Positions 9,532 through 63,362 of a stretch of DNA of 64,000 nucleotides are shown here, piece after piece (within the stretch, counting starts at the first letter, position 1; the number at the start of each line of letters is the position of its first letter). Both the position numbers and the translations under genes were made by a program. The notes below the pieces were generated by a model, which was not told the DNA's origin, searched no databases, and saw only the letters and a list, made by a program, of their open reading frames with translations. The stretch is from Rhodospirillales bacterium (GTDB lineage Bacteria; Pseudomonadota; Alphaproteobacteria; Rhodospirillales; UBA2165). The stretch covers positions 669-64,668 of the forward strand of contig JADHRD010000002.1 in assembly GCA_016777585.1 (NCBI GenBank), given 5' to 3'.

Positions 9532-11034
9532 TTATAGTGATTCAAACTTTTGCTTTGCCTTGGCGGCACGTATATCTCTTACGATAGCGTATATAAGTGA
9601 TAAAGCTGCCGCAATCAATAGCCCTAAACTAATTGGGTCTGTAAAAAAGACCTGGAAACTTCCATCGGATAAAATCAACGCTCTTCGAAGCGAGATCTCA
9701 ATTAGTTCGCCCAATACTAAGCCAATAACCAGAGGTATTAATGGAAATTTAAATTTCCGGAGTACATAACCCAAGACACCAATTATCAACATAACAACTA
9801 CATCACCAACACTACCGCCAACACTAAAAGCACCAATGAACGCAACGCTAAATATTAATGCAGCTAAGATAGGGGGTGAAACTTCAACAACCTTCAGCCA
9901 AAGACGAATAAACTTCAAACCTAAAAATAACATTACAAAATTTGCCAAAAAGAGTGTTGTAAAAATTCCATATACAATATCAGGGTTTTTTACGAATAAT
10001 TGTGGTCCAGGTGAGATATTATGTAACATTAACGCACCTAAAAGAATTGCTGTACTGCCAGATCCGGGCACCCCTAAGGTGAGCAGCGGAACCAATGCAC
10101 CGCCTACCGTGGCATTATTCGCTGTTTCAGATGCACAAACGCCCTCTGGCGCACCTTTACCAAATTTTTCGTGATTAGGTGAAATGCGTTTAGCCTCATT
10201 ATAAGCTACAATGCTTCCTATGGAAGCGCCAGCACCAGGCATTACACCGATTATTGTTCCAATTACACTAGAAATGGATAGCGTCTTCCAAAGGCCAGCA
10301 AACTCACGCCAAGAAATTCGTTCTGTAGTGAATTTAGCTCTACTCTTTAATCTCGTTTTTACTTCTGATTCTATAATTAAAAACACCTCTGTGATAGCAA
10401 ATAATCCCAGCATTGCAGAAACAAATGAAATACCCTCCCACAAGGCTGGTTGGCCGAAAGTAAAGCGCTGAGTTCCGGTCATTGGCTCAGCCCCAATTGT
10501 CTCTATTAAAAGACCAATTAGAGCGGCAATTACACCTTTAATCCAATTTCCGCTTACAAGACTAGCAACAATAGTTAATCCAAAAATACCGAGAGCAAAA
10601 TACTGAACTGGTCCAAAAGCAATTGCAAACTGAGCTAAGGGGATAGAAAAAAGAACTAGGCATATAGTACTAAAAACACCACCTGTAGTCGAAGACATTA
10701 TTGAAATACTCAGCGCTCTGCCAGTCTGGCCTGCCTCTGTCATAGGATAACCGTCAATAGCAGTAATCGCACCCGATGGGGTTCCGGGCGTATTAATAGT
10801 TATTGCTGTTATGGAACCACCATATTCAGCTCCAACATAGATTGAAATTAAAAGTACAATTGCCACTATTGGCGATAAAATATAGGTGAACGGAATCATT
10901 AACGCTAATCCAGTGGGACCACTTAAGCCTGGCATTGCTCCAACAACAATACCCATCGCAACACCTGCAAACATTGCCAACACAACCTGCCACTGTCCCA
11001 ACTGTCCAATACCTAAAAGCCAATTTTCTAACAT
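9532..11034 (-). CDS. tctA: tripartite tricarboxylate transporter large permease TctA
   Basis: 500-aa polytopic protein with GxxxGxxPGLSG and GVMPGAGASIGS motifs, sitting downstream of tctC and tctB. Confidence 0.85.
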   Translation of the reverse strand: MLENWLLGIGQLGQWQVVLAMFAGVAMGIVVGAMPGLSGPTGLALMIPFTYILSPIVAIVLLISIYVGAEYGGSITAITINTPGTPSGAITAIDGYPMTEAGQTGRALSISIMSSTTGGVFSTICLVLFSIPLAQFAIAFGPVQYFALGIFGLTIVASLVSGNWIKGVIAALIGLLIETIGAEPMTGTQRFTFGQPALWEGISFVSAMLGLFAITEVFLIIESEVKTRLKSRAKFTTERISWREFAGLWKTLSISSVIGTIIGVMPGAGASIGSIVAYNEAKRISPNHEKFGKGAPEGVCASETANNATVGGALVPLLTLGVPGSGSTAILLGALMLHNISPGPQLFVKNPDIVYGIFTTLFLANFVMLFLGLKFIRLWLKVVEVSPPILAALIFSVAFIGAFSVGGSVGDVVVMLIIGVLGYVLRKFKFPLIPLVIGLVLGELIEISLRRALILSDGSFQVFFTDPISLGLLIAAALSLIYAIVRDIRAAKAKQKFESL

Positions 11035-23523: not shown

Positions 23524-23934
23524 TTAAGTTTGTTTTTCGATTTTTGGTATATTATTAAGATTAAAAGTCCATGATTGCGCAGAGCGGCACCAGATCTGTT
23601 TTTGCGGTATAAGCCCCCTATTATTATCGACCGTACCTAATCTTATATTAAAGGTCCGGTTATCGGTTTCTTCAGTTGAAGTGGCATAAATATGGGATCC
23701 ACACTTAGCACAAAAGGCTTGTATTCGAGGATTCCCATTATTAGATTTTTTTATGTAGATTTTTGGTCTATTTCTCAACAAAATAAAATTTTTTTCATTT
23801 GCCGGTATTACTATTCGATAAGCCGCTGCAGACAATTTTTGGCAGTCTGTACAATGGCATATCCCAACCCCCTTCTCATCAGCCTCAGCCTCGTATAAAA
23901 TATTCTCGCAGTGGCAGCCACCTGTGATTCTCAT
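23524..23934 (-). CDS. GFA (glutathione-dependent formaldehyde-activating enzyme-like) family Zn-Cys protein
   Basis: GGCHCENI ... CHCTDCQK ... FCAKCGSH Cys pattern. Confidence 0.8.
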   Translation of the reverse strand: MRITGGCHCENILYEAEADEKGVGICHCTDCQKLSAAAYRIVIPANEKNFILLRNRPKIYIKKSNNGNPRIQAFCAKCGSHIYATSTEETDNRTFNIRLGTVDNNRGLIPQKQIWCRSAQSWTFNLNNIPKIEKQT

Positions 23935-23948
23935 TAATATCTCCCCTA

Positions 23949-25010
23949 TTAAAGCGGCGTAACCCGACCCTTAATTTCCGGACCATCAATGTCGTATCTG
24001 TACGCTCGAAACACGCAATTAGAAAGGGGGTCTTGAGAGTTCTGTGATGTTAGGTACGGAGAAATATATTCCCATACCAATTTCTTATCTTGGGTGACTT
24101 CGAAAAATCTACCCCAAATTCCCTCGCAAATTAGGGTATTTCCAGACTTCAGCCTTTGTGCACCAGAAATCATTGGACTATAAAACGTGTACCTAGGGCT
24201 ACCCGAATACTCCCAAATTATTTCTTTTGTTGCAGGATTAAATTCGATTACCTTAGAACCCATTCCAGGTCCCGGAACCTGATTAATAAAAACCATATAA
24301 TTTCCATTCTCTAGAACCTGAAAATCATGCTGGTAACCAAGTTCAGCTCCACACCAAGAAAAATTAAATTGTCCTGTCTTTCTATCTATTACAGCAATTA
24401 AATTATTATGCCTGCAACTTAACATAACATCTCCATTGGGAAGAAGCATAATTGAATTTGCGTGAGCCCACTCTCTTCGGCCAGAATTAAATGAGTTTGG
24501 AAAGGACTCAATCTCAATGTGCTCCCACATACGCCATTCCCAAACCAGTTCACCTTCAGGGTTTACCTCGCGAATACAATCACCCCAAATACCATCCGAA
24601 TGTGTACGGCTAGGATCCCCACCCTTAACACGATGAACATAATCATCGGGTATGAGCTCCCATGCTAAATATATTGTATTTCCGTTCGGACAACGCCGAA
24701 AATCATGGTGCTGATAATCATCACCATATTCCCAGATTTTATTGCCCTCCCAATTAATCTCGACAATTTTTCCACCCTTAGCATTTAATCCTGGCGGTCC
24801 ATTTGGTGTAAGAACTGCAGCTAACAAATTACCATTTGGCAACAGATACGCATAATTTCCTGGTTGAGAATCCAGATTCCAACTGTGGAGCACTTCACCC
24901 TGCATGCCGATTAAATATGTTGTTTTTTGGAGTAGCGGGGTGAATAAAGTGGCTCCGGGAGTGGACAGAGCCCTGTCATATTCAGTTACGCCGAAATTCG
25001 AAAACCTCAT
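23949..25010 (-). CDS. arylsulfotransferase (ASST)-like beta-propeller protein
   Basis: Repetitive propeller-like sequence (LLPNGNLL, LLPNGDVM, SGNTLICE). The family assignment is from memory only. Confidence 0.5.
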   Translation of the reverse strand: MRFSNFGVTEYDRALSTPGATLFTPLLQKTTYLIGMQGEVLHSWNLDSQPGNYAYLLPNGNLLAAVLTPNGPPGLNAKGGKIVEINWEGNKIWEYGDDYQHHDFRRCPNGNTIYLAWELIPDDYVHRVKGGDPSRTHSDGIWGDCIREVNPEGELVWEWRMWEHIEIESFPNSFNSGRREWAHANSIMLLPNGDVMLSCRHNNLIAVIDRKTGQFNFSWCGAELGYQHDFQVLENGNYMVFINQVPGPGMGSKVIEFNPATKEIIWEYSGSPRYTFYSPMISGAQRLKSGNTLICEGIWGRFFEVTQDKKLVWEYISPYLTSQNSQDPLSNCVFRAYRYDIDGPEIKGRVTPL

Positions 25011-25061
25011 TTATCTGAATTCCTATAAGTTTGCTTCAAAAATTGTATAAAATATTTAAAA

Positions 25062-25274
25062 TTATTCTGGCAGATCAATTTCTAAAATTGCCATATTTAA
25101 ATCATATGAGACCTCACCTTCTTCCTCGTCACGATACAAAGTTCCTATGAACTCCTCACCTAAATAAACCTCCAATGAATCTTGTGCCTTAATTCGACTA
25201 ACGAGCCTGAAGTTATCATTATTAAACTTACTACGCAGATATTTTTGAAGCTTTTGTACCTCTATCTCGGTCAC
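25062..25274 (-). CDS. DUF3126 family protein
   Basis: 70 aa with VEVYLGEEFIGTLYRDEEEGEVSYDLNMAILE, characteristic of the alphaproteobacterial DUF3126. Confidence 0.75.
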   Translation of the reverse strand: MTEIEVQKLQKYLRSKFNNDNFRLVSRIKAQDSLEVYLGEEFIGTLYRDEEEGEVSYDLNMAILEIDLPE

Positions 25275-25328: not shown

Positions 25329-26009
25329 TTATTGTTTTTGATTTAATATCTCCGCTGCCAGTGTTTTCCGATTGTAGAGATTAACCTGATAAACTTCAGA
25401 AAAATCATTTGGCACAGAATTAATAACAAACTCGTTCTCCATTAGCGCATCAGACCAAGCGCTTATATTTGGATACTGTTTTAAAATGTTTGTTGGGTTT
25501 ATACCCTCTACAATCTCAAACCGCATTATAAATGGAGCATAAGCTGCATCTACAAGAGATATGTTTTCGTCATTAAAATATGGTCCATTATTGCTACGAC
25601 GGGACAATGCGTCTTCCAGTTTTTGCAGTGTTAATGGTAATTCGTTTAGAGCTGACGCATGTTCTTCGACGGTTTTGGCATAAGTCACTTGATTAAGCGC
25701 CTTTGCCCAATTTCCGGTAAAATCAGTCCACGCTCGATTATAAGCGCGCATGATCGGATCCTGAGGAGCTAAACGTGGTTCAACTACCTCATCAAGAAAC
25801 TCAGCAATTGCATTTGACTCAAATAGCGCGATATCATTAACTTTTAGAACAGGTACTTTTCCATGGGGGGAAAGTTCCAAAAACCAATCGGGTTTATCTT
25901 CTTTAGTAATGTACGTTACGTCAAACTTTACTTTTTTTGCACGCAATACGATCACGGCGCGCTGAACCCATGGTCAAGTTTTAAAACTTATTAGGTGATA
26001 ATTATCCAA
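25329..26009 (-). CDS. glutathione S-transferase family protein, probable selenoprotein (in-frame TGA 25974..25976 read as Sec)
   Basis: Extending the track ORF upstream gives TTG(26009)-DNYHLISFKT-TGA-PWVQRAVIVLRAKKVKFDV, matching the GST N-terminus xLISxxxCP(Y/W)VQR with TGA at the catalytic Cys. A perfect SD (AAGGAG) lies 7 nt before the TTG. The track GTG start at 25955 has no SD. Confidence 0.7.
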
Positions 26010-26147
26010 TTAATTGCTCCTTATTATTTCTAAACGATGGCATATGAAGTGTTTTAATTCAATCAATATTGATAACTTAAAAACTTTTGAGTTAAAAATA
26101 GCGATAATTTCTGGAAACCATGAAAGAAACCAGCTAAAACCTATATT

Positions 26148-31729: not shown

Positions 31730-34198
<2,469 letters not shown>

Positions 34199-34242
34199 TT
34201 AGTAAACAGCTATTTGATAATCTAATTTTTTAGTCTTTGTTG

Positions 34243-35409
34243 TTAATCTACCCCGATTTCGAAATGTTGTGCATTGTTTCTCAAAGAAGAAAAAGTTTCT
34301 GGGTCTGTCCCAGTAATCCATGCTTGAACACCTAAATCGATAATTAGATCAAATAATGAAATTCTACGGTCTTGATCTAAGTGCGCTGTAATTTCATCAA
34401 GTAAAAGAAATGGCGCATAACCTCGCTCTTGTGTCTGAAGAATTACGGCTGCGATTACAAGACTAATTAGAAGGGATTTTTGCTCTCCTGTTGAACATAA
34501 TTTTGCCTCCATCTTATTTTTAGCATGGTAAACCATTAAATCACTCTTATGAGGTCCAAAAGAGGTATAACCCTTGATTCTATCAATTTCTCGAGACGCT
34601 TTCAATTCAACACGTATTTTCTCTTCAACAGCCAAGGCTGGTTCTTTTTCCAACCACCTCTCTACTTCTCCATTAAGTTCAATTAAAGAACCGGGGAATA
34701 CACCATTGCCAATTGAGCAAAATTTTCTCAACCGGTCTACTGTTTGTAACCGTTGTACCGTTACAGCTACCCCATGGCGGGAAATTGATGCCTCAATCGA
34801 ATCCAGCCATTCAGAGTCATCAAAATTATCTTTCAGTAGCCTATTACGGCTTCGAATAGAATGTTCATAAGCACTAACTGGACCAATGTGAGAAGGATCA
34901 AGGGCATAAGTAATTTGATCAATAAATCGACGACGACCAGAAGCACCCTCAGCAAACAACCTATCCATTTGAGGAGTCAACCATTGAGCACTAACGTATT
35001 CACCTAATTCAGATTGGTTCCTAACCACATTACCGTTGATTTTGATCACACGTTTAATGCTTTTTTGACTTTTATTGTCATAATTAGAAAATTCACAACC
35101 CGTACCAATATCCATCATGTTTTCGCCAATTTTTAATTTGGCCGCCACAGCCCAATTTGAAATTTTATCTTCGCCTTGGGATGATTTATGCAAAACTTCA
35201 CTTAATGGCGCTCGTCTTAACCCCTTACCCGGCACTAAAAATGAGAGCGCCTCCAATAAATTAGTTTTTCCAGCTCCGTTTAAACCAGTAAGAACAACGA
35301 GATTACTATCAATGTCAAAACGTTTAAACTTATAAGATCTAAAATTAGACAAAGTGAGCGAACTGATAGCAGTTTTGTCAGATACAGGTTTTTTATTTAC
35401 CTGGTTCAT
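34243..35409 (-). CDS. recF: DNA replication and repair protein RecF
   Basis: LTLSNFRSY, GLNGAGKTNLLEA, SGEQK and LLLDE. It lies between dnaN and gyrB. Confidence 0.95.
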   Translation of the reverse strand: MNQVNKKPVSDKTAISSLTLSNFRSYKFKRFDIDSNLVVLTGLNGAGKTNLLEALSFLVPGKGLRRAPLSEVLHKSSQGEDKISNWAVAAKLKIGENMMDIGTGCEFSNYDNKSQKSIKRVIKINGNVVRNQSELGEYVSAQWLTPQMDRLFAEGASGRRRFIDQITYALDPSHIGPVSAYEHSIRSRNRLLKDNFDDSEWLDSIEASISRHGVAVTVQRLQTVDRLRKFCSIGNGVFPGSLIELNGEVERWLEKEPALAVEEKIRVELKASREIDRIKGYTSFGPHKSDLMVYHAKNKMEAKLCSTGEQKSLLISLVIAAVILQTQERGYAPFLLLDEITAHLDQDRRISLFDLIIDLGVQAWITGTDPETFSSLRNNAQHFEIGVD

Positions 35410-35539
35410 ATTTCTAACACTATATGATAATTTCTTAAAAAAGACCTCAAAAAAATTTATTCCATTTTTTATTATAAATACTTATCCTTAACTATTAGGG
35501 ATGGACATCGCCATAATTATTTAAGTTGCAATCAACCTA

Positions 35540-36658
35540 TCAAACCCTCATTGGCATTAAAACGTATAATGCACCTTGATCCTCTAGATCTTCTATCAGT
35601 GTTGGTGATGATGAATTTGCCAAGGTAAAACGTATTAGTTTACCTTCTATTTGTTGGGCTATATCCAATAAATAACGAGAGTTGAAACCAATTTCCATCT
35701 CCACTTCATCATAATCTACTTGCAACTCTTCGGTGGCAGAATCATTTTCTGCGCTATTTGCTGAGAGTATTAGGCTCCCTTTTGAGACAGACAGCTTTAC
35801 CGATCGGGATTTCTCGTTAGAAATAGCAGATACACGATCCACCGCCTGAGAAAATAAATGGGCATCCACCTCAAGCACCTTATCATTGTTATCTGGAATG
35901 ACACGGTCATAATCTGGGAATGTCCCATCAATCAACTTTGATGTTAATGCAGTCCCGTCAAAACTAAATTTAATCTTAGTATCGGATAGACCCACCTCAA
36001 TATCTTCCTCGCCTTCATCAATTAGCTTACGCATTTCCGCAACTGCTTTACGGGGTAAAATAACCCCTGGCATGTCTAATGCACCTTGTGGTAAGGGTAA
36101 TTCTACACTTGCTAGCCTGTGACCATCCGTTGCCACTGCACGCAATACATTAGTATCACCTCTTTTAGCAGCGTGAAGATATATCCCGTTCAAATAATAA
36201 CGAGTTTCCTCTGTAGAAATAGCAAATTTTGATCTATCAATTAAACCTCTCAAATCACTTGATTTAAGTATAAAATTTATCGGCAAGTCGCCAGTTGAAG
36301 CTACTGGAAAATCCTCGGTTGGCAAACATGTTAACTTAAAATTAGAACGACCAGATATCAATGTTAGCTGTTTATCATCTCCATCCGAATCTAAAACAAT
36401 CTGAGATCCGTCAGGCAACTTTCTAACAATATCATATAATGTATGGGCTGGTGCAGTGGCTGAACCACCACCACTTATATCAGCTGGAATTTGCTCAACT
36501 ATGTCTATATCCATATCGGTTGCATGCAAAGTAAGAACATTATTTTGAGCTTCAAATTTTACATTTGATAAAATAGGGATGGTGTTTCTTCGCTCTACAA
36601 CTCCTTGGATATGATTTAAAACTTTTAATAACAATCCCCGTTCAATAGTAATTTTCAT
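35540..36658 (-). CDS. dnaN: DNA polymerase III beta sliding clamp
   Basis: 372 aa, NTIPILSNV, ATDGHRLA, YVLMPMRV C-terminus. Confidence 0.95.
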   Translation of the reverse strand: MKITIERGLLLKVLNHIQGVVERRNTIPILSNVKFEAQNNVLTLHATDMDIDIVEQIPADISGGGSATAPAHTLYDIVRKLPDGSQIVLDSDGDDKQLTLISGRSNFKLTCLPTEDFPVASTGDLPINFILKSSDLRGLIDRSKFAISTEETRYYLNGIYLHAAKRGDTNVLRAVATDGHRLASVELPLPQGALDMPGVILPRKAVAEMRKLIDEGEEDIEVGLSDTKIKFSFDGTALTSKLIDGTFPDYDRVIPDNNDKVLEVDAHLFSQAVDRVSAISNEKSRSVKLSVSKGSLILSANSAENDSATEELQVDYDEVEMEIGFNSRYLLDIAQQIEGKLIRFTLANSSSPTLIEDLEDQGALYVLMPMRV

Positions 36659-36998: not shown

Positions 36999-38417
36999 TT
37001 AGCCCTCTAACATGCGCTTTAAAAGATCTACATCTTCTGCAAAGCTATTATCGTGATCGCATAATTCGTCAACTTTTTTAACCGCATGCATCACCGTTGT
37101 ATGGTCTCTTCCACCAAATTTTCTCCCTATTTCAGGTAATGATCTAGATGTAAGCTGTTTTGATAAATACATGGCCACCTGACGTGGGCGCGCAACAGAC
37201 CTGGCTCGGCGGGCCGAATGCATGTCTGAAATACGGATATTAAAATGCTCAGCTACACTTTTTTGGATTTCTTCAATAGTTACCTTGCGGTCATTCGAGC
37301 GAAGAAGGTCATGGAGTATATCTTGCGTTGTTTCCAATGTTAAATCCCTTCCAACCAATTGTGTATGAGCAGCAACACGGTTTAACGCACCCTCTAATTC
37401 ACGAACATTCGAAGTAATTCTATGTGCCAAGAACTCAACCACGTTGCGGGGAACTTCCAATTTCATTTTTTCAGCTTTAGTCTCTAATATAGCCAAACGG
37501 AGCTCATAAGTTGTAGCATGAATGTCTGCGACCAAACCACAATTAAGCCTCGATTTTAGACGCTCTTCAACTCCTTCAAGATCTGACGGCGATTTATCGG
37601 CTGACAAAATTATTTGTCGACCCTGATCAACCAGCGCATTAAATGTGTGAAAGAACTCTTCTTGAGTTGCATCTCGACCACCAATGAATTGGACATCGTC
37701 AATCATTAATACATCAACCGAGCGAAATTGCTCCTTAAAGTCCACAGTGTTTTTTTCTCTTAAGGCTCTAACAAATCTATACATAAATTTTTCTGCAGAC
37801 AGATACATTACTGTGCGGGCGGGGTCCCTCTCTAGTATTTCCCAAGCAATCGCATTCATCAAATGAGTTTTACCTAAACCAACTCCACCATATAAGAACA
37901 ACGGATTAAAAAAAACTGATGACGCCTGAGCCACGCGTCTAGCTGCTGCATAAGCAAATTCGTTTGGCTTACCAACCACAAATTGATCAAATTTGAATCT
38001 TCCATCCAAAGGTGCAGAAATTTGACTGTCAGAAATATGCGGCGGGGTAGCTTTTTCTTTTTGATCTGACTTGACAACAACTTTAGCATCTAAATCATTT
38101 TTTTTATCAATATTATTATATTCTCTGGACACATGCGGCTGATTTTTCAAACTCGGCTGGATTATAACATCTACAGAGTTAACGACGTTATTCTCTCTAG
38201 TCCACAAATCCTTGAGACGATCTATGTAATTTGCCACTACCCAGTCACGCATGAACCTCGATGGAACAGCTAATCTGACTTCTGAGTTTCTAACATCAAA
38301 GGCTTTTATCGGCCTCACCCAGTTTTCAAAAGCGGTTTCGCCAATTTCGGTTTTTAAAGTGTTGCTTACTCTAAGCCATTGTTCCTGTAAACCTTTATCT
38401 TCAGAACTCATACCCAT
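36999..38417 (-). CDS. dnaA: chromosomal replication initiator DnaA
   Basis: GGVGLGKTHL, LMIDDVQF, SNVRELEGAL and the C-terminal DNA-binding KFGGRDHTTVMHA. The start is ambiguous: TTG 38435, ATG 38417 or ATG 38411. Confidence 0.95.
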   Translation of the reverse strand: MGMSSEDKGLQEQWLRVSNTLKTEIGETAFENWVRPIKAFDVRNSEVRLAVPSRFMRDWVVANYIDRLKDLWTRENNVVNSVDVIIQPSLKNQPHVSREYNNIDKKNDLDAKVVVKSDQKEKATPPHISDSQISAPLDGRFKFDQFVVGKPNEFAYAAARRVAQASSVFFNPLFLYGGVGLGKTHLMNAIAWEILERDPARTVMYLSAEKFMYRFVRALREKNTVDFKEQFRSVDVLMIDDVQFIGGRDATQEEFFHTFNALVDQGRQIILSADKSPSDLEGVEERLKSRLNCGLVADIHATTYELRLAILETKAEKMKLEVPRNVVEFLAHRITSNVRELEGALNRVAAHTQLVGRDLTLETTQDILHDLLRSNDRKVTIEEIQKSVAEHFNIRISDMHSARRARSVARPRQVAMYLSKQLTSRSLPEIGRKFGGRDHTTVMHAVKKVDELCDHDNSFAEDVDLLKRMLEG

Positions 38418-38906
38418 GCTTGCCAGCCCCAACAATAAACATCTATCGATAACAGTCTGTCAGTATAACCATACCGACATAATCGAATTCTAATCTCAAA
38501 CGATCATATATGATAGCGTTTTAATTCCAACAAAAGAGCAATTTTTAATTTTGCTCCCGCCCAATCTTTTAACGGTCACACTTTTTCCAAAATAATCTTA
38601 AGATTAAAATGCACCCTGAATATCCTTTAAAAATTTCTGGTAATCACCTTTTTATAATTTTTTTTAATTTATCTTGAAATAATGTTAAAAGATAACCTCA
38701 AGACAAGATTAACCTTACATAACAAATTTTTTTGATTCAATAGGTCCGAAAGGAGAACGTGTAAAATTTTCTTCTTGACATGAAACAAAGATTCGAATCG
38801 TGACTTATAAAAGGCATTATTTTAATAATATTTTTCTACAACAATAAACGATGTTTATTACAACTCTGTTTTTACTGATTAAAAAAAATTGAGATGGTGG
38901 CTTCTA

Positions 38907-45213: not shown

Positions 45214-46179
45214 ATGAATAAATCATCGGAATTTAGGGGTCGTATATACGACAGCATAATAGAAACTATCGGTGCTACTCCATTAATTAAATTAAACCGC
45301 CTACCGAAGAATCATAATTGTCTTGCTGTTATACTTGGTAAATGTGAGTTTTTTAATCCATTAGCTTCAGTTAAAGATCGTATTGGACATGCCATGATTA
45401 TTGCGGCTGAGAATGATGGAAAATTAAAAGAAGGCTCAGTCATTATTGAACCAACATCCGGTAATACTGGAATTGCATTAGCATTCATTGCAGCAGCTAA
45501 AGGTTATCGACTAATATTAACGATGCCAGAAAGCATGTCTGAAGAACGTCGAAAAATGTTATATTTATTAGGGGCGGAAATAATATTAACTCCAGCTTCT
45601 AAAGGAATGAGAGGGGCTATTGAGAAGGCTGAGGAAATTGTGAGTGACACCCCTAATGCATTCATGCCACAGCAATTTAGTAATAACTCGAACCCTGAGA
45701 TTCATTGTCAAACGACGGCTGAAGAAATTTGGTTAGATACAGGGGGAAACGTTGACGCAATTATTGCAGGCATTGGCACCGGAGGAACTTTTACCGGTAT
45801 TGGTAGTAAATTAAAGAAAAGAAAACCAAATATTCGTATGATTGCTATAGAACCTGAAGATAGTTCAGTAATATCTGGCGGTATTCCTGGTCCTCATAAG
45901 ATACAAGGTATTGGTGCAGGATTTATTCCAGATAACCTTGATACTAGTCTTATTGATGAGGTAATACAGATTGGCAATGAAACAGCATTAATAACCGCGC
46001 GTCAGGCAGCTAGGTTGGAAGGTTTGCCTGTTGGTATATCGTCAGGCGCCGCAATAGCTGCTGCTCTTGAAGTTGGTTCACGGTCAGAAATGTTAGATAA
46101 AAGAATTGTTGTAATTCTTCCTTCTTTTGCCGAAAGGTATTTATCTACTGCGCTGTTTGATGGAATTAATGTCAGGTGA
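45214..46179 (+). CDS. cysK: cysteine synthase A (O-acetylserine sulfhydrylase)
   Basis: PLIKLNR, FNPLASVKDR (PLP Lys), EPTSGNTGIALA, GIGTGGTFTG. Ends with TGA at 46177..46179. Confidence 0.9.
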   Translation: MNKSSEFRGRIYDSIIETIGATPLIKLNRLPKNHNCLAVILGKCEFFNPLASVKDRIGHAMIIAAENDGKLKEGSVIIEPTSGNTGIALAFIAAAKGYRLILTMPESMSEERRKMLYLLGAEIILTPASKGMRGAIEKAEEIVSDTPNAFMPQQFSNNSNPEIHCQTTAEEIWLDTGGNVDAIIAGIGTGGTFTGIGSKLKKRKPNIRMIAIEPEDSSVISGGIPGPHKIQGIGAGFIPDNLDTSLIDEVIQIGNETALITARQAARLEGLPVGISSGAAIAAALEVGSRSEMLDKRIVVILPSFAERYLSTALFDGINVR

Positions 46180-46186
46180 TCGAATT

Positions 46187-46981
46187 ATGTCTCTAACGGA
46201 TCAACAAATTGAGAGGTATGCAAGACACATTCTCCTTCCAGAAATAGGTGGTAGTGGACAAGCAAAGATTCGTAAAGCAAGGGTACTAGTGATCGGGGCC
46301 GGAGGTCTCAGCACCCCCATAATACAATATCTTACAGCAGCCGGTATAGGCACAATCGGGTTAATAGATGACGACATAGTTGAACTAAGCAACCTTCAAC
46401 GTCAGGTCATGCACTCAACCTCACGATTAGGAATGAAAAAGGTATTAAGTGCTAAAATCGCAGCGAGGGAAATTAATCCGGATACAGACATTATTTGCCA
46501 TTCTGAACGTTTAACGTACAAGAATGCCCGCCAATTAATATCTGAATATGATATTGTTTCTGACGGGTGTGATAATTTTTCAACTAGGTTTTTAGTAATG
46601 GATGGCTGCTACCTTGAACGAAAAACCTTAGTCTCAGGAGCCATTATGCGTTTTGACGGGCAACTAAGTGTTTTTAAACCCCATGAGAGAATTGAAGGAG
46701 ATTGTCCCTGTTATCGCTGCCTATATCCCAAAGCACCACCCCCAAATACAATCCCAACGTGCGCTGAAGCTGGAGTATTGGGATCGCTATGTGGTATAAT
46801 TGGGTCTTTGCAAGCAACTGAAATCCTAAAGGAAATTACAGGCACAGGAGAAAGTTTGTCTGGATCATTAATTATTTTTAATGCTCTTAGTACTCAGTTT
46901 AGGAAAATAAAAATTAGACCTGATCCAAAGTGCTTATTATGCAGTCCATCCGCAACCATTACAGAGCTCGCTCAAGAATGA
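46187..46981 (+). CDS. moeB: HesA/MoeB/ThiF family adenylyltransferase
   Basis: RYARHILLPEIGGSGQ, VIGAGGLS, SNLQRQ, CPCYRC and CLLC zinc pairs. ATG 46187 lies 8 nt after the cysK stop; the track start at 46127 overlaps cysK. Confidence 0.85.
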   Translation: MSLTDQQIERYARHILLPEIGGSGQAKIRKARVLVIGAGGLSTPIIQYLTAAGIGTIGLIDDDIVELSNLQRQVMHSTSRLGMKKVLSAKIAAREINPDTDIICHSERLTYKNARQLISEYDIVSDGCDNFSTRFLVMDGCYLERKTLVSGAIMRFDGQLSVFKPHERIEGDCPCYRCLYPKAPPPNTIPTCAEAGVLGSLCGIIGSLQATEILKEITGTGESLSGSLIIFNALSTQFRKIKIRPDPKCLLCSPSATITELAQE

Positions 46982-54555: not shown

Positions 54556-56664
54556 TTAACTACTAATATCTTCGCCCGTCTCTTGGTCTACGCTTTTCAT
54601 AGAAAGTTTTACTTTTCCTCTGTCATCTATTCCAACCAACTTAACTTTGACCTTATCACCAACATTAATAATATCAGTTGTTTTTTCTACTCTTTCCGGA
54701 CGCAATTCACTTATGTGGACCAAGCCATCGCGAGCACCCATAAAGTTTACAAAAGCTCCAAAGTCAACTGTCTTTACTACAGTACCCGAATAAATAACCC
54801 CTACTTCAGGCTCTGCTGCAATATCATTAATCATCGCTACAGCGGCATCTGATGCCTTTTCATCTACAGCAGCAACCTTAACAGTTCCATCATCATCAAT
54901 ATCAATCTTTGCACCGGTGGTTTCACAAATCTCTCTGATCATTTTTCCTCCAGGCCCAATAATTTCACGAATTTTATCAACAGGAACTTTGATCACCGTG
55001 ATACGCGGTGCATTATCACTAACGCCATCACGAGCAGAAGTTAAGGCTTTCGACATTTCTTCTAATATGTGCAGCCTACCCTCACGCGCTTGATCAACTG
55101 CATCTCTCATTATTTCTTCAGTGATCGAGGTAATTTTAATATCCATCTGAAGTGCCGTTATGCCAATCTCCGTCCCCGCAACCTTGAAATCCATATCTCC
55201 CAAATGATCTTCATCACCCAGAATATCTGACAAAATAACAACCCCCTCCTCTTCTTTGATCAAACCCATCGCGATACCTGCTACGGGTCTAATTAATGGT
55301 ACACCGGCATCCATCATAGATAAGGAAGTCCCACAAACGGTCGCCATTGACGATGATCCATTGGACTCAGTAATTTCTGACACTATCCTAATCGTATATG
55401 GGAAGGATTCTTTTTCTGGCATGACTGGGCGAATTGCTCGCCAAGCTAGTTTTCCATGGCCAATTTCTCGGCGACCCGGGCCAGCCATGCGACCAGCTTC
55501 TCCGACAGAGTAAGGCGGGAAGTTGTAATGTAACATAAAATGCTCACGATAATCACCATCTAACCCATCAATGATTTGCTCATCCTGTCCAGTACCGAGA
55601 GTAGCAACAACCATTGCCTGTGTCTCTCCACGGGTAAATAGTGAGCTACCGTGTGCCCGCGGAAGGATGCCAACCTCGGATACAATTGGCCGCACCGTTT
55701 TGGTATCACGGCCATCAATTCTCTGACCTGTCTTGATAAGACCTTTTCTTACAATATCCTTCTCTATCTCCTTAAAAACACTGCCAACAATCATATCTGT
55801 AGCATCTTCATTCTCAATAAAATTTTCCATGACTGTTGCTTTAATACTAGATATTTTATCCTGCCGCGCCGACTTTTCTGAAATAGAATAAGCCTCTCGC
55901 AACCCATCTTCCGATAATTCTTGTACCGCTGATTTTATTTGGCTAACAATCTTGGGTGTTTCTGGAACATCCCTGGGGTCCTTAGCACAAGCTTGCGCTA
56001 AATCAACTATCGAATTAATAATCTCTTGATTAGCTTTGTGCCCGAACATCACGGCCCCAAGCATTATTTCTTCCGAAAGTTCATTTGCTTCGGACTCTAC
56101 CATGAGAACGCCCTCGTTAGTACCCGCAACAACCAAATTAAGCTGGGAATCCTGCATAGTTTCTAAAACAGGGTTTAAAATGTATTCTCCATCTATGTAT
56201 CCCACTCGTGAAGCACCTATCGGACCCATAAAAGGTATACCAGAAATTGTTAAAGCGGCTGAAGTTCCTATCATCGCAACAATGTCTGGATCGTTCTCTA
56301 GATCGTGTGCTAGAACCGTACATATTAGTTGCGTCTCACATTTATAGTTTGGATGGAACAAAGGTCGCACTGGCCTATCAATAAGACGAGACGTAAGCGT
56401 TTCCTTTTCAGTTGGACGCGCTTCGCGTTTAAAAAACCCACCCGGTATTTTGCCAGCAGCAAATGTTTTTTCTTGATAATTAACCGTTAGAGGGAAAAAG
56501 TCTAAATCAGTCCTAGGTTTCTTTGCACCGACAGCTGTGCATAAGACCTTTGTCTCGCCATAAGTAATCATAACTGCGCCATCAGCCTGTCTTGCAATTT
56601 TACCTGTTTCAAACGTAAGTTTGCGACCACCTAAATCCATCTCTTTTTTGAATTCAGAAAACAT
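54556..56664 (-). CDS. pnp: polyribonucleotide nucleotidyltransferase (PNPase)
   Basis: Two RNase PH domains, then KH and S1 ([18 protein letters not shown]). Confidence 0.97.
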
Positions 56665-56787
56665 TATACTATCCTTCCTACCAACAATTATATTTGCGCC
56701 TTTGACACGGCACTGTTAATTCTTATCGTTATATTTAGCTCACTTAATTTATACTCTATACTCATTCAACCTTAATGTGTAGCTTCA

Positions 56788-56870
56788 CCGGAGCTAACTC
56801 TTTTGCTCATCAAATTTAACTGGGAAGCCTAATTTGAGACTTTAAGCGAGTGAGTTGTAAAAAACTCCGG
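56788..56870 (-). promoter_or_regulatory. long irregular stem-loop in the rpsO-pnp intergenic leader
   Basis: On the minus strand, nested pairings CCGGAG/CTCCGG, AACTC/GAGTT, GCTTA/TGAGC and TCAAATT/AATTTGA enclose a 14-nt loop. Confidence 0.45.
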
Positions 56871-56884
56871 GACCAAACAATAAG

Positions 56885-57154
56885 TTATCTACGTAAACCC
56901 AATCTTTTTATCAACTCATCGTAGCGGTCAGATTTCTTTGATTTTAAATAATCTAAAAGACGGCGTCGCTGTCCAACCATCATTAAAAGTCCACGCCGGG
57001 AGTGATGATCTTTTTTATGAGTTTTTAGGTGGTCAGTCAGATTAGTAATCCTTTCCGTAAGGATTGCTATTTGGACCTCTGGGGAACCAGTATCCCCATC
57101 TTTAGTAGCATATTCATTAATTACATCCTGTTTGCGTTCCGTAGTGATCGACAT
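56885..57154 (-). CDS. rpsO: 30S ribosomal protein S15
   Basis: [15 protein letters not shown] ... [15 protein letters not shown] 57154 has SD GGAGAA upstream; the track TTG at 57166 is unlikely. Confidence 0.95.
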
Positions 57155-57171
57155 CGGTTTCTCCAATCATT

Positions 57172-58098
57172 TTAAAGGTTTAACACACGATATGGCGTAA
57201 CTCTTCCTGATTCTATCTTCGCTAATGAAATAATTTTACCCTGACATATTGTATAAAAAGGTGTTGCCACCCCAATTTTCAAAGCTTGTTTACTTTTAGC
57301 TAGTTGGATCAATGGAATAGCTATACCATTCTTAACTATTTTTGCTTCCTCTTCAGTCAATACAAGGGCCGGGATGTCGTCCAGCACTGTTTCAACCGGC
57401 AGCAGTTTACTTGCTACGGCCTCCTTATGCCCTAAAATTTTCAATTGATCCAGCGAAATTGCATCTTTTTCTAAAAAATTACCAACTTGTGTTCTTCTTA
57501 AATTTGAAACACACCCGACCGTTCCTAACGCTCGAGCTAAATCGCGCGCAAGCGACCTTACATACACTCCTTTACCGCAACACAGTTGGAAGCAAGCTTC
57601 TTCCGTACTCAAAATATTCATCAATGTTAGGTCTTCTATGAAAACAGGCCGAGGTTTTAAAATAACATCGTTCCCAGCACGCGCCAATTTATAGGCTCTT
57701 TGACCACTTATTTTAACAGCTGAGTAGGCCGGAGGCACCTGATTTACCTCTCCGATAAATCGTTTAAGAATGTTCTGAATAGCAGACACACCTGGTCTCT
57801 TGTCACTCGTGCCTATAATATTCCCTTCTAGGTCATCAGTATCTCTGGCTTCACCCCATCTAATAGTAAATTTATATTTTTTTGTTTTGTTTACGGCATA
57901 AGAGAGCGTTTTTGTTGCCTCTCCAAAAGCCAATGGCAGCACTCCCGAAGCCATCGGATCAAGTGTACCTCCGTGGCCCACTTTAGCGGCATTTAAATAA
58001 TTTTTTGCATAATACACGGCCTTAGCAGAACTCATATTTAAGGGTTTATCAATAACTAGCCATCCATGAACCGGATCACCTTTTCTTTTCCTAGCCAT
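57172..58098 (-). CDS. truB: tRNA pseudouridine(55) synthase
   Basis: HGWLVIDKPLNMSS, GHGGTLDPMASGVLPL, QVPPAYSAVK. Confidence 0.95.
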   Translation of the reverse strand: MARKRKGDPVHGWLVIDKPLNMSSAKAVYYAKNYLNAAKVGHGGTLDPMASGVLPLAFGEATKTLSYAVNKTKKYKFTIRWGEARDTDDLEGNIIGTSDKRPGVSAIQNILKRFIGEVNQVPPAYSAVKISGQRAYKLARAGNDVILKPRPVFIEDLTLMNILSTEEACFQLCCGKGVYVRSLARDLARALGTVGCVSNLRRTQVGNFLEKDAISLDQLKILGHKEAVASKLLPVETVLDDIPALVLTEEEAKIVKNGIAIPLIQLAKSKQALKIGVATPFYTICQGKIISLAKIESGRVTPYRVLNL

Positions 58099-58142
58099 AT
58101 ACTGTTCTATCCCTCTTTAAATGGTTCTAGTATCGTCAAAAA

Positions 58143-58535
58143 TTATATATCCCCCTCTTTATCTATTGATTCCAATAAGTTATCAATATGCATTGCATAA
58201 TCAAACGATGTGTCATGTTCAAATTTCAAATTAGGAACTCTTCGTAAGTGCGCACGTTTTGCTAACTGATGCCGGATAAATGGCGCCGCGCTCTGAGCAG
58301 CCTCAATTAACACTTTTTGTTCCCCACCACCTAAACGCGTTATAAATATTGAAGCGTTGCTCAAATCTGGCGAGACCCGGACCTCTGAAACAGTAATAGT
58401 TACATTTACCAGGTCTGGATGATTCAATTCTCCACGATCAAAAATTTGTGCTAACAAATGCCTCAACTCTTCGCCAACCCGAAGTTGCCGCTGACTGGGA
58501 ACATGCTTAGACATGCGTTTAGACTTTTTTCCCAT
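58143..58535 (-). CDS. rbfA: ribosome-binding factor A
   Basis: RQLRVGEELRHLLAQIF, VTITVSEVRVSPDLSNASIF, PNLKFEHD. Confidence 0.92.
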   Translation of the reverse strand: MGKKSKRMSKHVPSQRQLRVGEELRHLLAQIFDRGELNHPDLVNVTITVSEVRVSPDLSNASIFITRLGGGEQKVLIEAAQSAAPFIRHQLAKRAHLRRVPNLKFEHDTSFDYAMHIDNLLESIDKEGDI

Positions 58536-58556
58536 GCATCACCCGCTCTAAATAAT

Positions 58557-61073
58557 TTATATTTCTGGGGTCTCTTCCTTCACGTCAAAACACTCTATCA
58601 CATCGCCAATCTTCAAATCTGTATAATTTTCGAAAGACATGCCACACTCCATTGATTCCCTAACCTCACCAACGTCATCTTTAAACCGTTTTAGCGTGGA
58701 CAAATTACCTTCATGTATTACAACATCATCACGTAGCAATCGAACACCAGCTCCGCGCTTGACATCACCATTAGTTACAAAACAGCCTGCTACTTTTCCA
58801 ATTTTTGATACATTAAATACTTCTCTCACTTCAGCATTCCCTAAATGCGTTTCACGAACTATGGGCGCCATTAGACCAACCAGCAATTTCTTTATGTCAT
58901 CAACAACATCATAGATTATTGAATAATATCTGATATCGACGCCCTCTTTTCTAGCTGTATCACGAGCTTGATGATTAGCTCTTACATTAAACCCAAAAAT
59001 TACAGCGTTTGAAGCTTCCGCTAGCGATACGTCTGATTCGTTAATTCCACCAATACCCTGGTGTAAAACCTGAATCTTGACTTCTTCTTGAGGGAGTTTC
59101 GAGAACATGCCAACGATTGCTTCAGCAGAACCTTGAACGTCCGCTTTAATTACAATGGGTAAATCCTTCACATCTCCGGCTTTTATCGACTCAAACATTT
59201 CTTCTAAAGTGCCACGTTGACCTGCAGTTGACTTAGCAGACCGGTTCTTTTCTCCCCTGAACGCAGCAACTTCCCGAGCACGCGCTTCACTCTCGACCAC
59301 AAAGAACTCTTCACCCGCATTGGGAGCACCCGAGAAACCAACAACTTCCACAGGGATAGCTGGGCCAGCCTCTGTAATATTTTCACCTTTATCATTTACA
59401 AGCGCTCTTACCCTACCAGATTCCGAACCTGCAACAAAAATATTTCCCCTGCTTAAAGTACCTTTTTGAACCAACACGGTTGCAACAACACCCCTGCCCT
59501 GCTCCACTCGAGATTCTATAACCACACCTTCCGCTGGTCGGTTTGGGTTTGCCTTAAGATCTAGTATTTCAGATTGAAGTAATATAGTTTCTTCCAGTTT
59601 TTCAATATTAGTTCCTGCAGTAGCAGAAACCTCAACGTCAAGAATTTCGCCGCCCATGGCCTCTAAAACCAAATCATGCTCCAATAATTGGGTCCTGACT
59701 TTATTTGGGTTAGCGCCTGGTTTGTCAATTTTATTAATTGCTACAATAATAGGAACATCAGCAGATTTTGCATGATTAATTGCCTCGACTGTCTGTGGCA
59801 TAATACCGTCGTCTGCAGCAACCACTAACACAACAATATCTGTGACCTTGGCACCTCTAGCTCTCATAGCTGTAAACGCTTCATGTCCAGGTGTGTCAAT
59901 AAATGTTATTTTCTCGCCATTATCGGCCTCACTTTGATAAGCGCCAATATGCTGCGTAATGCCACCAGCCTCGCCATCAACCACACTAGCCTTTCTCATT
60001 GCATCAAGCAAAGAAGTTTTACCGTGATCCACATGGCCCATAACTGTTACGACGGGGGAACGAGGAACCATATCTTCGTCTTTATCTAGGTTATCGCCCA
60101 AGCCAATTTCAATATCAGAATCACTTACTCTTTTCGCTGTATGGCCAAACTCCTCAACAAGTAATTCTGCTGTATCAGCATCAATCACGTCAGCCATTTT
60201 CACCATAACACCCATTTTCATTAGAGCTTTTACAACCTCAACACCCCTTGCAGCCATTCGGTTAGAGAGCTCTTGAACAGAAATCGTTTCTGGAATAACA
60301 ACCTCTCTGACAATCTTGATGTGCTCAATGGGCCCCTCTTGTCGTTTCTGCCGCTCACGTTGGCGCTTTAAAGAAGCTAGTGAGCGCTGACGTTCAGAGT
60401 CATCTAAGGCCTCAGCAATAGTCAGTTTTCCTTGTCTACGCCTCTCCCCTTGCCTTGGCATTGAAAGTTGTTTTTTTGGAGACACGCCTTTCTTCTTTGG
60501 GCTTTCATCATCGTCTTTCAAAATCAGTTTATCTAAATTGGACTTTGCAGCCGAAGCCTCAGCAGCCTCTAAATCTAGTGCAGATTGTCTAATTTTTTCC
60601 GCTTCAATCTCTGCCTCATCTAATTTAACCTGATCTTCATCGATTTTTCCAGATTCTATGTTTTTAACTGGTTCGGGTTCTGGCTCATCTTTTCTTGCCT
60701 GTTCAGTCTCTTGGGCAACTTGAAGCGCAAGGGCTCTCGCTGTTCGCTCTTTATCAGTGAGATTTTGCTGAGATGCAGGCTTTGCTATTTGGTTTTCTTG
60801 AAGCATAACCGCCTCAACTGGCTTAATATCTGTTTCAAGCTCGCTTTCTACATGGCTAGCGACAATCTCTTTCATTCGGCCCGATGAACTCGCCTCAAAT
60901 GTTCTTTTCTTCTTTACTTCAACTGCAACCACCTTTGAACGGCCATGTGAAAAACTTTGTCTTACTTGACCACCTACAATAGTTTTTTGAAGTTCAAGTT
61001 TACCTGGCCGAGATAAAGTCAGCTTTTTCTTCGGTTTCTTGTCTTTGGCATCAGTATTATCGTTCATATCCAA
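58557..61073 (-). CDS. infB: translation initiation factor IF-2
   Basis: Charged low-complexity N-half. G domain ([21 protein letters not shown]). C-terminal IF2 domains. Confidence 0.97.
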
Positions 61074-61129
61074 CCAACTACTCGTTTAAATGTCATTAAA
61101 AATATTTAGTACATATATTCGTTTAAAGT

Positions 61130-61762
61130 CTATCTGCTAATGTAAGAACGCTCATTTTCTTCCTTAAAAAAACCTGATAATCTCTTGATCTCAAGTAAAA
61201 GGTTCGTAGTGAATGAACCAGAACTAATAACAGCGTATACAATTTTATCTCTATCAAAAATTCTACCTAACTCCGAGCTACTAAAACAAAACACAAACTT
61301 TGCATCCGGGGGGATATTTGTCTTCTCTTTAGAGCGAGACCTCCTACTATCGCTAGCCACAATGATTATACCAGCGTCTTTAGAAGACAAAAATAACCCT
61401 ACCTTAGCATAGCCACCCACCATCTGTCCTGCTCGCCTCGCCATTCCCATTAACTCGTGGCACCGTTTTCTCAATAAGCCCTCAATCAAGTCAGCCATAT
61501 CAATAGGAACACTTACTTTATCTTTTAACACATTTGTAAAAATGCCCTTATCACAAGCGGCAGTTACAATATCTTTTTTTGCCTTCAACCATAAACCACG
61601 ACCAGGGAGACGTCCAGCAACGTCTGGCACAACAAACTTGTTTGGCCCTACCACGAACCTTATTAAGTCTGATTTATAACATAGTTCTTTCGTCAGAATA
61701 CATTTTCTCATGTTTTTATCACTGCGTGCGCTTTTTAACAGAACAACCTCTCTACCAAACAC
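61130..61762 (-). CDS. YlxR-like (DUF448) RNA-binding protein fused to an L7Ae-like domain
   Basis: RKCILTKELCYKSDLIRFVVGP ... GRGLWL, then an ARRAGQMVGG L7Ae-like region. It lies between nusA and infB. The start may be the internal Met at 61711. Confidence 0.75.
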   Translation of the reverse strand: MFGREVVLLKSARSDKNMRKCILTKELCYKSDLIRFVVGPNKFVVPDVAGRLPGRGLWLKAKKDIVTAACDKGIFTNVLKDKVSVPIDMADLIEGLLRKRCHELMGMARRAGQMVGGYAKVGLFLSSKDAGIIIVASDSRRSRSKEKTNIPPDAKFVFCFSSSELGRIFDRDKIVYAVISSGSFTTNLLLEIKRLSGFFKEENERSYISR

Positions 61763-61811
61763 GTATAAACAATAACCGCTTATATTTTTTTGTCTAATTT
61801 CTTAAATATTA

Positions 61812-63362
61812 CTAATTCTCTTTTTTATCACCTTCTGTTTCTTCGTCCTCAAACCAATGCGCTCGAGCCAACATTATGATTTTATCAGCAACATCTTCCG
61901 ACAAATTACTTTTACCGATAATATCAATTAACTCGTCGTTCGCTAAATCAGCTAAATCATCTAAGGTTTTAATCTCATTTTCGCCAAGAGCCACAAGCAT
62001 CTCGCCATTTAAACCATCAATTTCAGCTATCTCATCACTTACACCAGCTTTCTTACGAATGTCTGACAACTCTGTTTCTCGTTGTTCGAGATGCTGGCGA
62101 GCCCTATCCCTCAACTCCGCTGCCACATCTTCATCAAACCCTTCGATCGCTGATAATTCCTCTATGGGAACAAACGCAGCCTCCTCAATTGTTGAAAAGC
62201 CTTCAGTTACGAGTAGTTGGGCTATAACTTCGTCAACATCTAAGCCATCGATAAACAATTGTGATCGCGACTTAAACTCTTCACCCCTGCGATCAGACTC
62301 CTCAGCCTCGGTTAAAATATCTATATCCCAATTTGTCAGTTGCGAAGCCAATCGAACATTTTGACCACGGCGACCTATCGCAAGACTCAATTGCTCATCG
62401 GGGACAACAACCTCAATTCTATTTTGTTCCTCATCAAGAACAACTTTGGTAACTTCTGCAGGCGCTAACGCATTCACAATAAAGGTGGCAGGTTCGTCTG
62501 ACCATGAAATAATATCAATTTTTTCACCCTGCAACTCAGCAACAACTGATTGCACACGAGAACCTCGCATCCCAACACACGCCCCAACAGGGTCAATCGT
62601 AGTATCATTTGAAATAACAGCGATTTTAGCACGACTACCTGAATCTCTTGATACGGAACGAATTTCAATAACACCATCATAAATTTCCGGAACTTCCTGA
62701 GTAAAAAGTTTTGCCATAAACTGTGGGTGACTCCTCGAGAGAAAAATTTGTGGCCCCCTTAATTCTTCTCTAACGTCAAAAATATAAGATCTCACTCTAT
62801 CTCCATTATTGAAGTGTTCACGAGGAATACACTCGTCCCGACGAATTATACCCTCTGCTCGACCACCCAAATCGACTATAACATTACCGAACTCTACTCT
62901 TTTAACGACACCATTTACAATTTCACCAATACGGTCTTTAAATTCAGCAAATTGTCGTTTGCGCTCGGCCTCTCGAACCTTTTGCACTATAACTTGTTTA
63001 GCCGTCTGCGCAGCAATTCTTCCAAAATCAATGGGAGGAAGCGTATCAATAAGAAATTCACCAACCTTTGCATCAACTCTCTTTGCTTGCGCCTTGATAA
63101 AAGAGATTTCTGTGATCTCATTTTCTACTTCTTCAACAATTTCAATATATCTTGCCAACTTTATCTCACCTGATTTACGATCGATTTCAGCACGAATATC
63201 ATGTTCTTGACCATATTTAGAACGCCCAGCTTTCTGGATCGCCTGCTCCATGGCTTCAAGCACCACTTCCCTTTCTATACTCTTCTCCCGAGCTACAGTA
63301 TCTGCAACCAACAACAATTCTGGGTGCGCATTTATAACACTTGTTTCTATATTATCGCTCAT
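61812..63362 (-). CDS. nusA: transcription termination/antitermination factor NusA
   Basis: N-terminal domain, S1 (GEIVNGVVKRV), two KH domains (DPVGACVGMRGSRV, AIGRRGQNVRLA), and an acidic C-terminal repeat region. Confidence 0.97.
   Translation of the reverse strand: MSDNIETSVINAHPELLLVADTVAREKSIEREVVLEAMEQAIQKAGRSKYGQEHDIRAEIDRKSGEIKLARYIEIVEEVENEITEISFIKAQAKRVDAKVGEFLIDTLPPIDFGRIAAQTAKQVIVQKVREAERKRQFAEFKDRIGEIVNGVVKRVEFGNVIVDLGGRAEGIIRRDECIPREHFNNGDRVRSYIFDVREELRGPQIFLSRSHPQFMAKLFTQEVPEIYDGVIEIRSVSRDSGSRAKIAVISNDTTIDPVGACVGMRGSRVQSVVAELQGEKIDIISWSDEPATFIVNALAPAEVTKVVLDEEQNRIEVVVPDEQLSLAIGRRGQNVRLASQLTNWDIDILTEAEESDRRGEEFKSRSQLFIDGLDVDEVIAQLLVTEGFSTIEEAAFVPIEELSAIEGFDEDVAAELRDRARQHLEQRETELSDIRKKAGVSDEIAEIDGLNGEMLVALGENEIKTLDDLADLANDELIDIIGKSNLSEDVADKIIMLARAHWFEDEETEGDKKEN

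Follow-up and report, generated by a model that had tools for sequence, protein, structure and literature searches.

A GST gene with an in-frame TGA at the catalytic Cys position in a Rhodospirillales bacterium, a probable further ortholog of the GST-like selenoproteins of marine bacteria

The DNA analysed here, referred to as the window, is a stretch of 64,000 nucleotides from a Rhodospirillales bacterium. Its minus strand carries, at 25329..26009, a coding sequence for a putative Sec-containing GST of 226 aa, which runs from a TTG start to a TAA stop and begins with M/L-DNYHLISFKT-U-PWVQRAVIV. The assignment is based on translation, Pfam, a match to GST omega-1, and orthologs. On the same strand, the gene is preceded by a Shine-Dalgarno-like AAGGAG (26017..26022), which is read directly from the sequence and lies 7 nt before the TTG. 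The spacer between the two is CAATTAA, and its last three bases form an in-frame TAA (26012-26010), so that the TTG of the long form (26007..26009, minus strand) stands directly after a stop codon. The TTG is followed by the codons GAT AAT TAT CAC CTA ATA AGT TTT AAA ACT and then by an in-frame TGA (25974..25976, minus strand), the inferred Sec codon, which aligns with the invariant Cys of full-length homologs. After the TGA, the frame continues with CCA TGG GTT CAG CGC GCC, a GTG (25953..25955, minus strand), and ATC GTA TTG CGT GCA. The read-through product thus comprises 11 residues, U, and a further 214 residues. Between the TAA and the TGA, the TTG is the sole codon among ATG, GTG, and TTG. 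The ORF list of the window contains only a 208-aa ORF that starts from the GTG. This GTG is the start in the model of the gene callers; it corresponds to Val19 of the long form and supplies the conserved loop G-U of a SECIS-like hairpin, located within the coding sequence at 25939..25962 on the minus strand. The hairpin was delimited by folding, RNAalifold, stem conservation, and invariant synonymous sites. An earlier note on this DNA had described the succession of AAGGAG, TAA, TTG, TGA, and GTG, and every coordinate in it is correct, base for base.

The long form has the composition of a two-domain GST. For the protein searches, Cys was substituted for the residue encoded by TGA. Residues 5-75 match the Pfam families GST_N_2 (2.4e-17), GST_N_3, and GST_N, with matches that begin at residues 5-11, and residues 106-192 match GST_C_2, GST_C, and GST_C_3. 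Among solved structures, the best match is GST omega-1, and U12 is aligned to the Cys of F-C-P-F-A-Q-R in 8qll and in other GSTO1 entries (human GST omega-1). The alignment of full-length relatives has the motif T-C-PWVQR[AS][AV]I with an invariant Cys, and also contains the invariant pairs V52-P53 and E64-S65. From general knowledge of GSTs, these pairs are taken to be the cis-Pro and Glu-Ser residues of the glutathione site. The proposal of the earlier note that the TGA lies exactly at the active-site Cys is borne out by the presence of both Pfam GST_N and GST_C, by the GSTO1 alignment, and by the T-C-PWVQR motif of the relatives; when the protein is aligned with Cys-containing GST homologs, the TGA falls on the invariant Cys.

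Omega-class and other Cys-type GSTs, such as human GSTO1, plant lambda, and DHAR, likewise have the two-domain GST fold, a catalytic residue at the start of helix alpha1 within C-P-[FWY]-x-x-R, and the conserved cis-Pro and Glu-Ser glutathione-site residues. In contrast to these, the window gene is bacterial and would have Sec in place of Cys. The match to a solved structure (E 3.8e-22) is only that of a distant sequence relative, and the window protein is therefore described as omega-like and is not placed in the omega class proper. NCBIfam has no model specific to the subfamily, so that naming based on families cannot flag a Sec-GST.

Relatives were collected from GTDB representatives, with each bacterial species represented by a single genome, and the best 80 loci were taken. 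Among these best 80 loci, the homologous codon is TGA in 40 and TGC or TGT in the other 40. That 40 of these species-representative loci combine the TGA with an upstream start and with the stem is more than would be expected by chance. In a large protein collection, the predicted proteins from 100% down to about 63% identity all have 208-212 aa and cover about 91% of the query, while more distant relatives of 230-233 aa cover the whole of it. The DNA of two relatives with short models (89% and 70% identity) has the same TGA behind a conserved open frame. The closest named genome is that of 'Rhodospirillaceae bacterium TMED23' (NHCC01), at 89%. Closed chromosomes with a TGA form include OZ253937.1, OZ219790.1, OZ244055.1, OZ244980.1, and OZ244931.1. 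An independent assembly with the identical sequence (L087) likewise has the TGA, and more than 30 near-identical public assemblies have the same 208-aa ORF called. Independent assemblies thus show TGA, and not TGY, at 25974..25976.

In a neighbour-joining tree, the TGA forms make up one large clade. The outgroup consists entirely of Cys forms, and the TGA clade itself encloses two groups of Cys forms. These two nested groups comprise eight Cys forms (L007, L012, L021, L029, L030, L037, L038, and L041), most of which have the codon at about 10024-10033, and indicate at least two Sec-to-Cys replacements. The TGA clade spans a locus GC of 37-71% and contains MAGs labelled as Alpha- and Gammaproteobacteria.

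In each of the 42 TGA-form loci examined, a start codon precedes the TGA by 11-14 codons. Most of these starts are ATG, and they stand at the site homologous to the TTG of the window, which agrees with the choice of this TTG as the true start in the earlier note. The relative with 89% identity (L001) has GAAGGAG at the place where the window has AAGGAG. In the relative with 70% identity, the DNA upstream of the short gene model has an ATG where the window has the TTG. Within the TGA forms, the codons from -6 to -1 vary synonymously while the peptide is constant. On the other side of the TGA, Pro+1 and Val+3 use all four synonymous codons, and the peptide PWVQRA is conserved. This pattern of a conserved protein with synonymous change in the segment between TGA and GTG requires that the segment be translated from upstream, through the TGA.

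The one close relative that is seemingly of full length, a public ENA protein (P0037, from L086 25-717), has Trp at the Sec position and reads 'FKTWPWVQR'. The underlying DNA is ACT TGA CCA, and the Trp is explained by translation of the contig with code 4 (TGA=Trp). Entries of this type can pass for full-length variants with neither Sec nor Cys in protein databases.

GST selenoproteins are known from marine metagenomes. The study of the Sargasso Sea (Zhang, Fomenko & Gladyshev 2005, PMC1088965) lists GST among the new prokaryotic selenoprotein families, with 4 sequences. In the GOS study (Zhang & Gladyshev 2008, PMC2398784), GST is represented by 12 Sec sequences, next to 1,036 Cys homologs. 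A GST or GST-like selenoprotein family is also included in a 2026 review (PMC13188914), and by the account of this review, knowledge of the family comes from bioinformatics alone. Reports of the family, of its Sec position, and of a SECIS-like structure date from 2005 and 2008 (PMC1088965, PMC2398784). The supplementary sequences include MTSKYHLISFVTuPWVQRAVIVLRAK... and MAKNIHLISSVTuPWVQRAVIVLRTK... (PMC1088965, PMC2398784). In BLASTP, the window protein has 74% identity to the first over 84 aa, and 62% identity to the second over 154 aa.

The published GST-like selenoproteins share YHLIS-x-x-T-U-PWVQRAVI with the window protein, with U at residue 12-13. They also share the nucleotide element after the TGA, which is TGACCATGGGTCCAGCGTGCCGTGATAGTTTTGCGCGC in AACY01041448, and are likewise derived from marine bacteria. 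There is no difference in kind, and the window gene is another ortholog. It has a TTG start, and comes from a relative of 'Rhodospirillaceae bacterium TMED23' with a low GC content (38%). While the published entries are read fragments, the window gene is of full length and has its genomic context. As judged from these sequence comparisons, the window gene is a member of the GST-like selenoproteins that have been published from marine metagenomes, and is not new. The '#GST' list of the GOS study also contains a second, unrelated Sec-GST subfamily with the sequence MEYPILYSFRRUPYAIRARLAL... (PMC2398784). The window gene is not a member of this RRUPYAIRAR subfamily, and the window contains no representative of it.

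The hairpin after the TGA consists of a 5' arm GCGCGC (25962-25957) and a 3' arm GCGUGC (25944-25939), with one G.U pair, and a loop of 12 nt, CGUGAUCGUAUU (25956-25945). The stem begins at the 12th nucleotide after the TGA and thus leaves a spacer of 11 nt. When the T of TGA is numbered 1, the stem occupies positions 15-20 and 33-38, and pairs GCGCGC with GCGYGC. The distance from the UGA to the loop is 17 nt. The loop begins with C-G-U-G-A-U and has G-U at its positions 2-3. The distinct TGA sequences all have this loop G-U, and in every one of them 11 nt separate the UGA from the stem.

All six stem pairs are standard in 41 of 41 distinct TGA sequences, as against 9 of 39 Cys sequences. The stem is lost in seven of the eight Cys forms nested in the TGA clade, together with the fixed codons CGC GCC GTG. 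These nested forms serve as a control that is not confounded by shared ancestry or GC content. The codons are likewise frozen. At +4 to +7 of the 41 distinct TGA sequences, CAG is found in 41, CGC in 41, GCC in 40, and GTG in 40. The entropy at third positions is 0-0.17 bits at +4 to +7, compared with 1.7-1.9 bits at +1, +3, and +12, where the four-fold codons of the TGA forms use all four bases. In the Cys forms, the position of the GTG is mostly Ala, and the codons there are GCG, GCC, GTC, GTG, GCA, GTT, and GCT. Arg+11 is encoded by CGT or CGC only in the TGA forms, and also by CGG and AGG in the Cys forms; the restriction to CGT and CGC keeps the G17-Y36 pair. These codon patterns demonstrate that the hairpin sequence is under selection specifically in the UGA forms. 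The coordinates 25939..25962 and the GCGCGC/GCGUGC pairing proposed in the earlier note are correct, and its view of the hairpin as a SECIS candidate agrees with the conservation of the stem in the TGA forms and with the frozen synonymous sites.

RNAalifold, applied to 37 sequences, recovered the same 6-pair helix unaided. The changes seen in the stem are limited to G.U<->G-C and a single C-G->U.G, the latter in a published Sargasso sequence. In the covariation test, compensatory double changes were found at none of the stem pairs, and the shuffling control of this test yields no information, given how little the stem varies. A shift of the GCGCGC repeat by 2 nt still leaves fairly good pairing. 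The fold of the window sequence has -11.9 kcal/mol for 52 nt, with a z of -0.5 against dinucleotide shuffles, and is thus not thermodynamically unusual. The hairpin of the window has an MFE of -9.0 kcal/mol, and the bare stem and loop -7.2 kcal/mol. A value of -7.5 kcal/mol is reached by 31 of the 41 TGA forms. The fold stability of the GC-rich Cys forms equals or exceeds that of the TGA forms; the MFE does not separate Sec from Cys forms, since the Cys forms are from GC-rich genomes. Loops smaller than 12 nt arise only from inner pairs that are not conserved. A scan of 25800-26100 against Rfam at a permissive E-value gave two matches at chance level and no SECIS family.

The bSECIS consensus has a stem of 4-16 bp, a loop of 3-9 nt, and an MFE of <= -7.5 kcal/mol; one of the first two loop positions is a G with a G or U after it, and the UGA and the apical loop are 16-37 nt apart (PMC13188914). 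According to the summary in PMC13188914, this consensus originates from Zhang & Gladyshev 2005. The window hairpin fits the model in its stem (6 bp), in the G-U at loop positions 2-3, and in the 17 nt between UGA and loop. In contrast, its loop of 12 nt exceeds the 3-9 nt of the model, and its energy of -7.2 to -9.0 kcal/mol is borderline. Like the SECIS of the E. coli fdhF type, it directly follows the UGA on the 3' side, within the coding region; unlike the latter, it has neither a bulged U nor a long lower stem. The 11-nt spacer of the window stem is presumably the spacing that is required for the minimal fdhF element.

Of the 55 long ORFs of the window, 7 end in TGA, gyrB and dnaN among them. 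It is thus a normal stop elsewhere in the window, which indicates that the code is standard and that the recoding is local to the GST site. An alternative code, with TGA as Trp or Gly, was rejected on this basis. ARAGORN found no tRNA in the 64-kb window, and no tRNA-Sec among the 2 tRNAs in the window and 1.4 Mb of fetched loci. SelA, SelB, and SelD were not found with NCBIfam among the 19 window ORFs that are the largest of suitable size. The lone match to a selB model in the window is the GTPase domain of IF-2, far below the cutoff, and was discarded. SelD gave no tblastn match in the fetched loci, a weak result in view of an approximate E. coli query and flanks of only 10 kb. The lack of sel genes in the window and flanks is not evidence of their absence, as the rest of the genome lies outside the search. 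A generic scan for Sec/Cys pairs in all loci (1.4 Mb) identified GST only, and its other matches were rejected as out-of-frame artefacts in GC-rich DNA. A scan of the window for in-frame TGA yielded no other credible candidate.

Taken together, the gene very probably encodes a Cys-type, omega-like GST with a UGA-encoded Sec at the nucleophilic residue 12, a TTG start, and a SECIS-like hairpin. The pairing of Sec with Cys forms, the coding conservation on both sides of the UGA, and the conserved start are established by the comparison of loci; SelB binding, Se incorporation, and the enzymatic reaction are predicted from it. The TTG at 26009, preceded by the AAGGAG, would be the site of initiation. 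At the UGA, the mRNA hairpin may recruit a SelB-type elongation factor with Sec-tRNA(Sec), and Sec would be inserted instead of termination. The Sec at residue 12 would be located at the N-terminus of helix alpha1, in T-U-P-W-V-Q-R. Like the Cys-type GSTs, the enzyme is expected to catalyse thiol transfer, deglutathionylation, or reductase reactions, and its GST chemistry may proceed via a mixed selenenyl-sulfide with glutathione.

The UGA might instead be read through without Sec, by a near-cognate or suppressor tRNA that inserts Trp, Cys, or another residue, while the hairpin slows termination. The lack of observed Sec machinery in the window and the fetched flanks is in line with this, as is the small size of the hairpin, whose 12-nt loop is outside the bSECIS consensus. 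However, the UGA alternates only with Cys codons, and at the catalytic Cys site. An alternation with Cys alone is a signature of Sec and not of Trp read-through. The invariant loop G-U and the fixed spacing of the stem among distinct TGA sequences also argue against a read-through without Sec, and the family has already been classed as a selenoprotein family in the literature. Such a read-through is considered very improbable.

It is equally doubtful that the short form is the real product, with the GTG at 25955 (ATG in relatives) as the start of a 208-aa GST, and with the 11 upstream codons as a leader peptide that ends at the TGA. This form is the choice of all standard gene callers, and the GTG is kept in 40 of the 41 TGA forms. 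Against it, the GTG has no ribosome-binding site, as the earlier note had claimed, and the homologs do not begin there. The six codons between the TGA and the GTG vary synonymously while their peptide, PWVQRA, is conserved, and they include no conserved start, so that their translation must begin further upstream. The peptide encoded upstream is colinear with the N-terminus of the Cys forms. A GST made from the GTG would lack a part of the thioredoxin fold covered by Pfam GST_N, including strand beta1, and the catalytic residue. By the evidence of the upstream DNA, the gene models of this gene and of its close relatives are too short, and cut off strand beta1 and the catalytic residue.

A pseudogene or an error of sequencing or assembly, in which TGY changed to TGA, is suggested only by the look of one in-frame stop 12 codons into a single sequence, and has a negligible probability, being already refuted by conservation across species: the same TGA recurs in the independent assembly and in 40 species-level genomes, the 208-aa ORF is the same in the near-identical public assemblies, and purifying selection on the remainder of the gene is clear.

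The reading as a Sec-GST leaves current knowledge of the family, as described in 2005 and 2008, unchanged. It calls for a correction of the annotation, as the public models have 208-212 aa in every database entry seen. The gene would mark the organism as a user of Sec, and sel genes and further selenoproteins are accordingly predicted in other parts of its genome. The locus also offers a case of selection at the RNA level inside a coding sequence, in which synonymous sites are frozen only with UGA and relaxed after the replacement of Sec by Cys. At least two Sec-to-Cys reversions, each followed by decay of the hairpin, would constitute a clean natural experiment on the SECIS constraint. More tentatively, the Sec-GST clade may be far commoner than the few reported reads, with one nearly invariant element, GCGCGC-CGUGAU-N5-U-GCGYGC. 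This element could mark a distinct class of SelB recognition, or the gene could be spreading horizontally with its own SECIS, although this broader proposal is rather unlikely at present.

The gene order downstream of the GST is kept in relatives (window 23524-25274, minus strand; L001 10690-12440; L004 11709-13571). It comprises genes for a DUF3126 protein (70 aa), an arylsulfotransferase-family protein (353 aa), and a GFA-family protein (136 aa). GFA is the family of glutathione-dependent formaldehyde-activating enzymes. L004 differs in that it has an EamA transporter inserted after the GST and before DUF3126. Elsewhere in the window, a dnaN-recF-gyrB block is found at 31730-36658 (minus strand), recognised by comparison of its gene order with the Pfam table of L001, and is adjoined by a 478-aa ORF at 36999-38435. 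A nusA-infB-truB-pnp block is located at 54556-63362 (minus strand). The two blocks indicate that the window is part of the core chromosome and not of a mobile element. On the plus strand, an ORF with a TTG start at 46127-46981 overlaps the end of cysK (45214-46179, plus strand) by 53 nt, and its true start is probably located further downstream.
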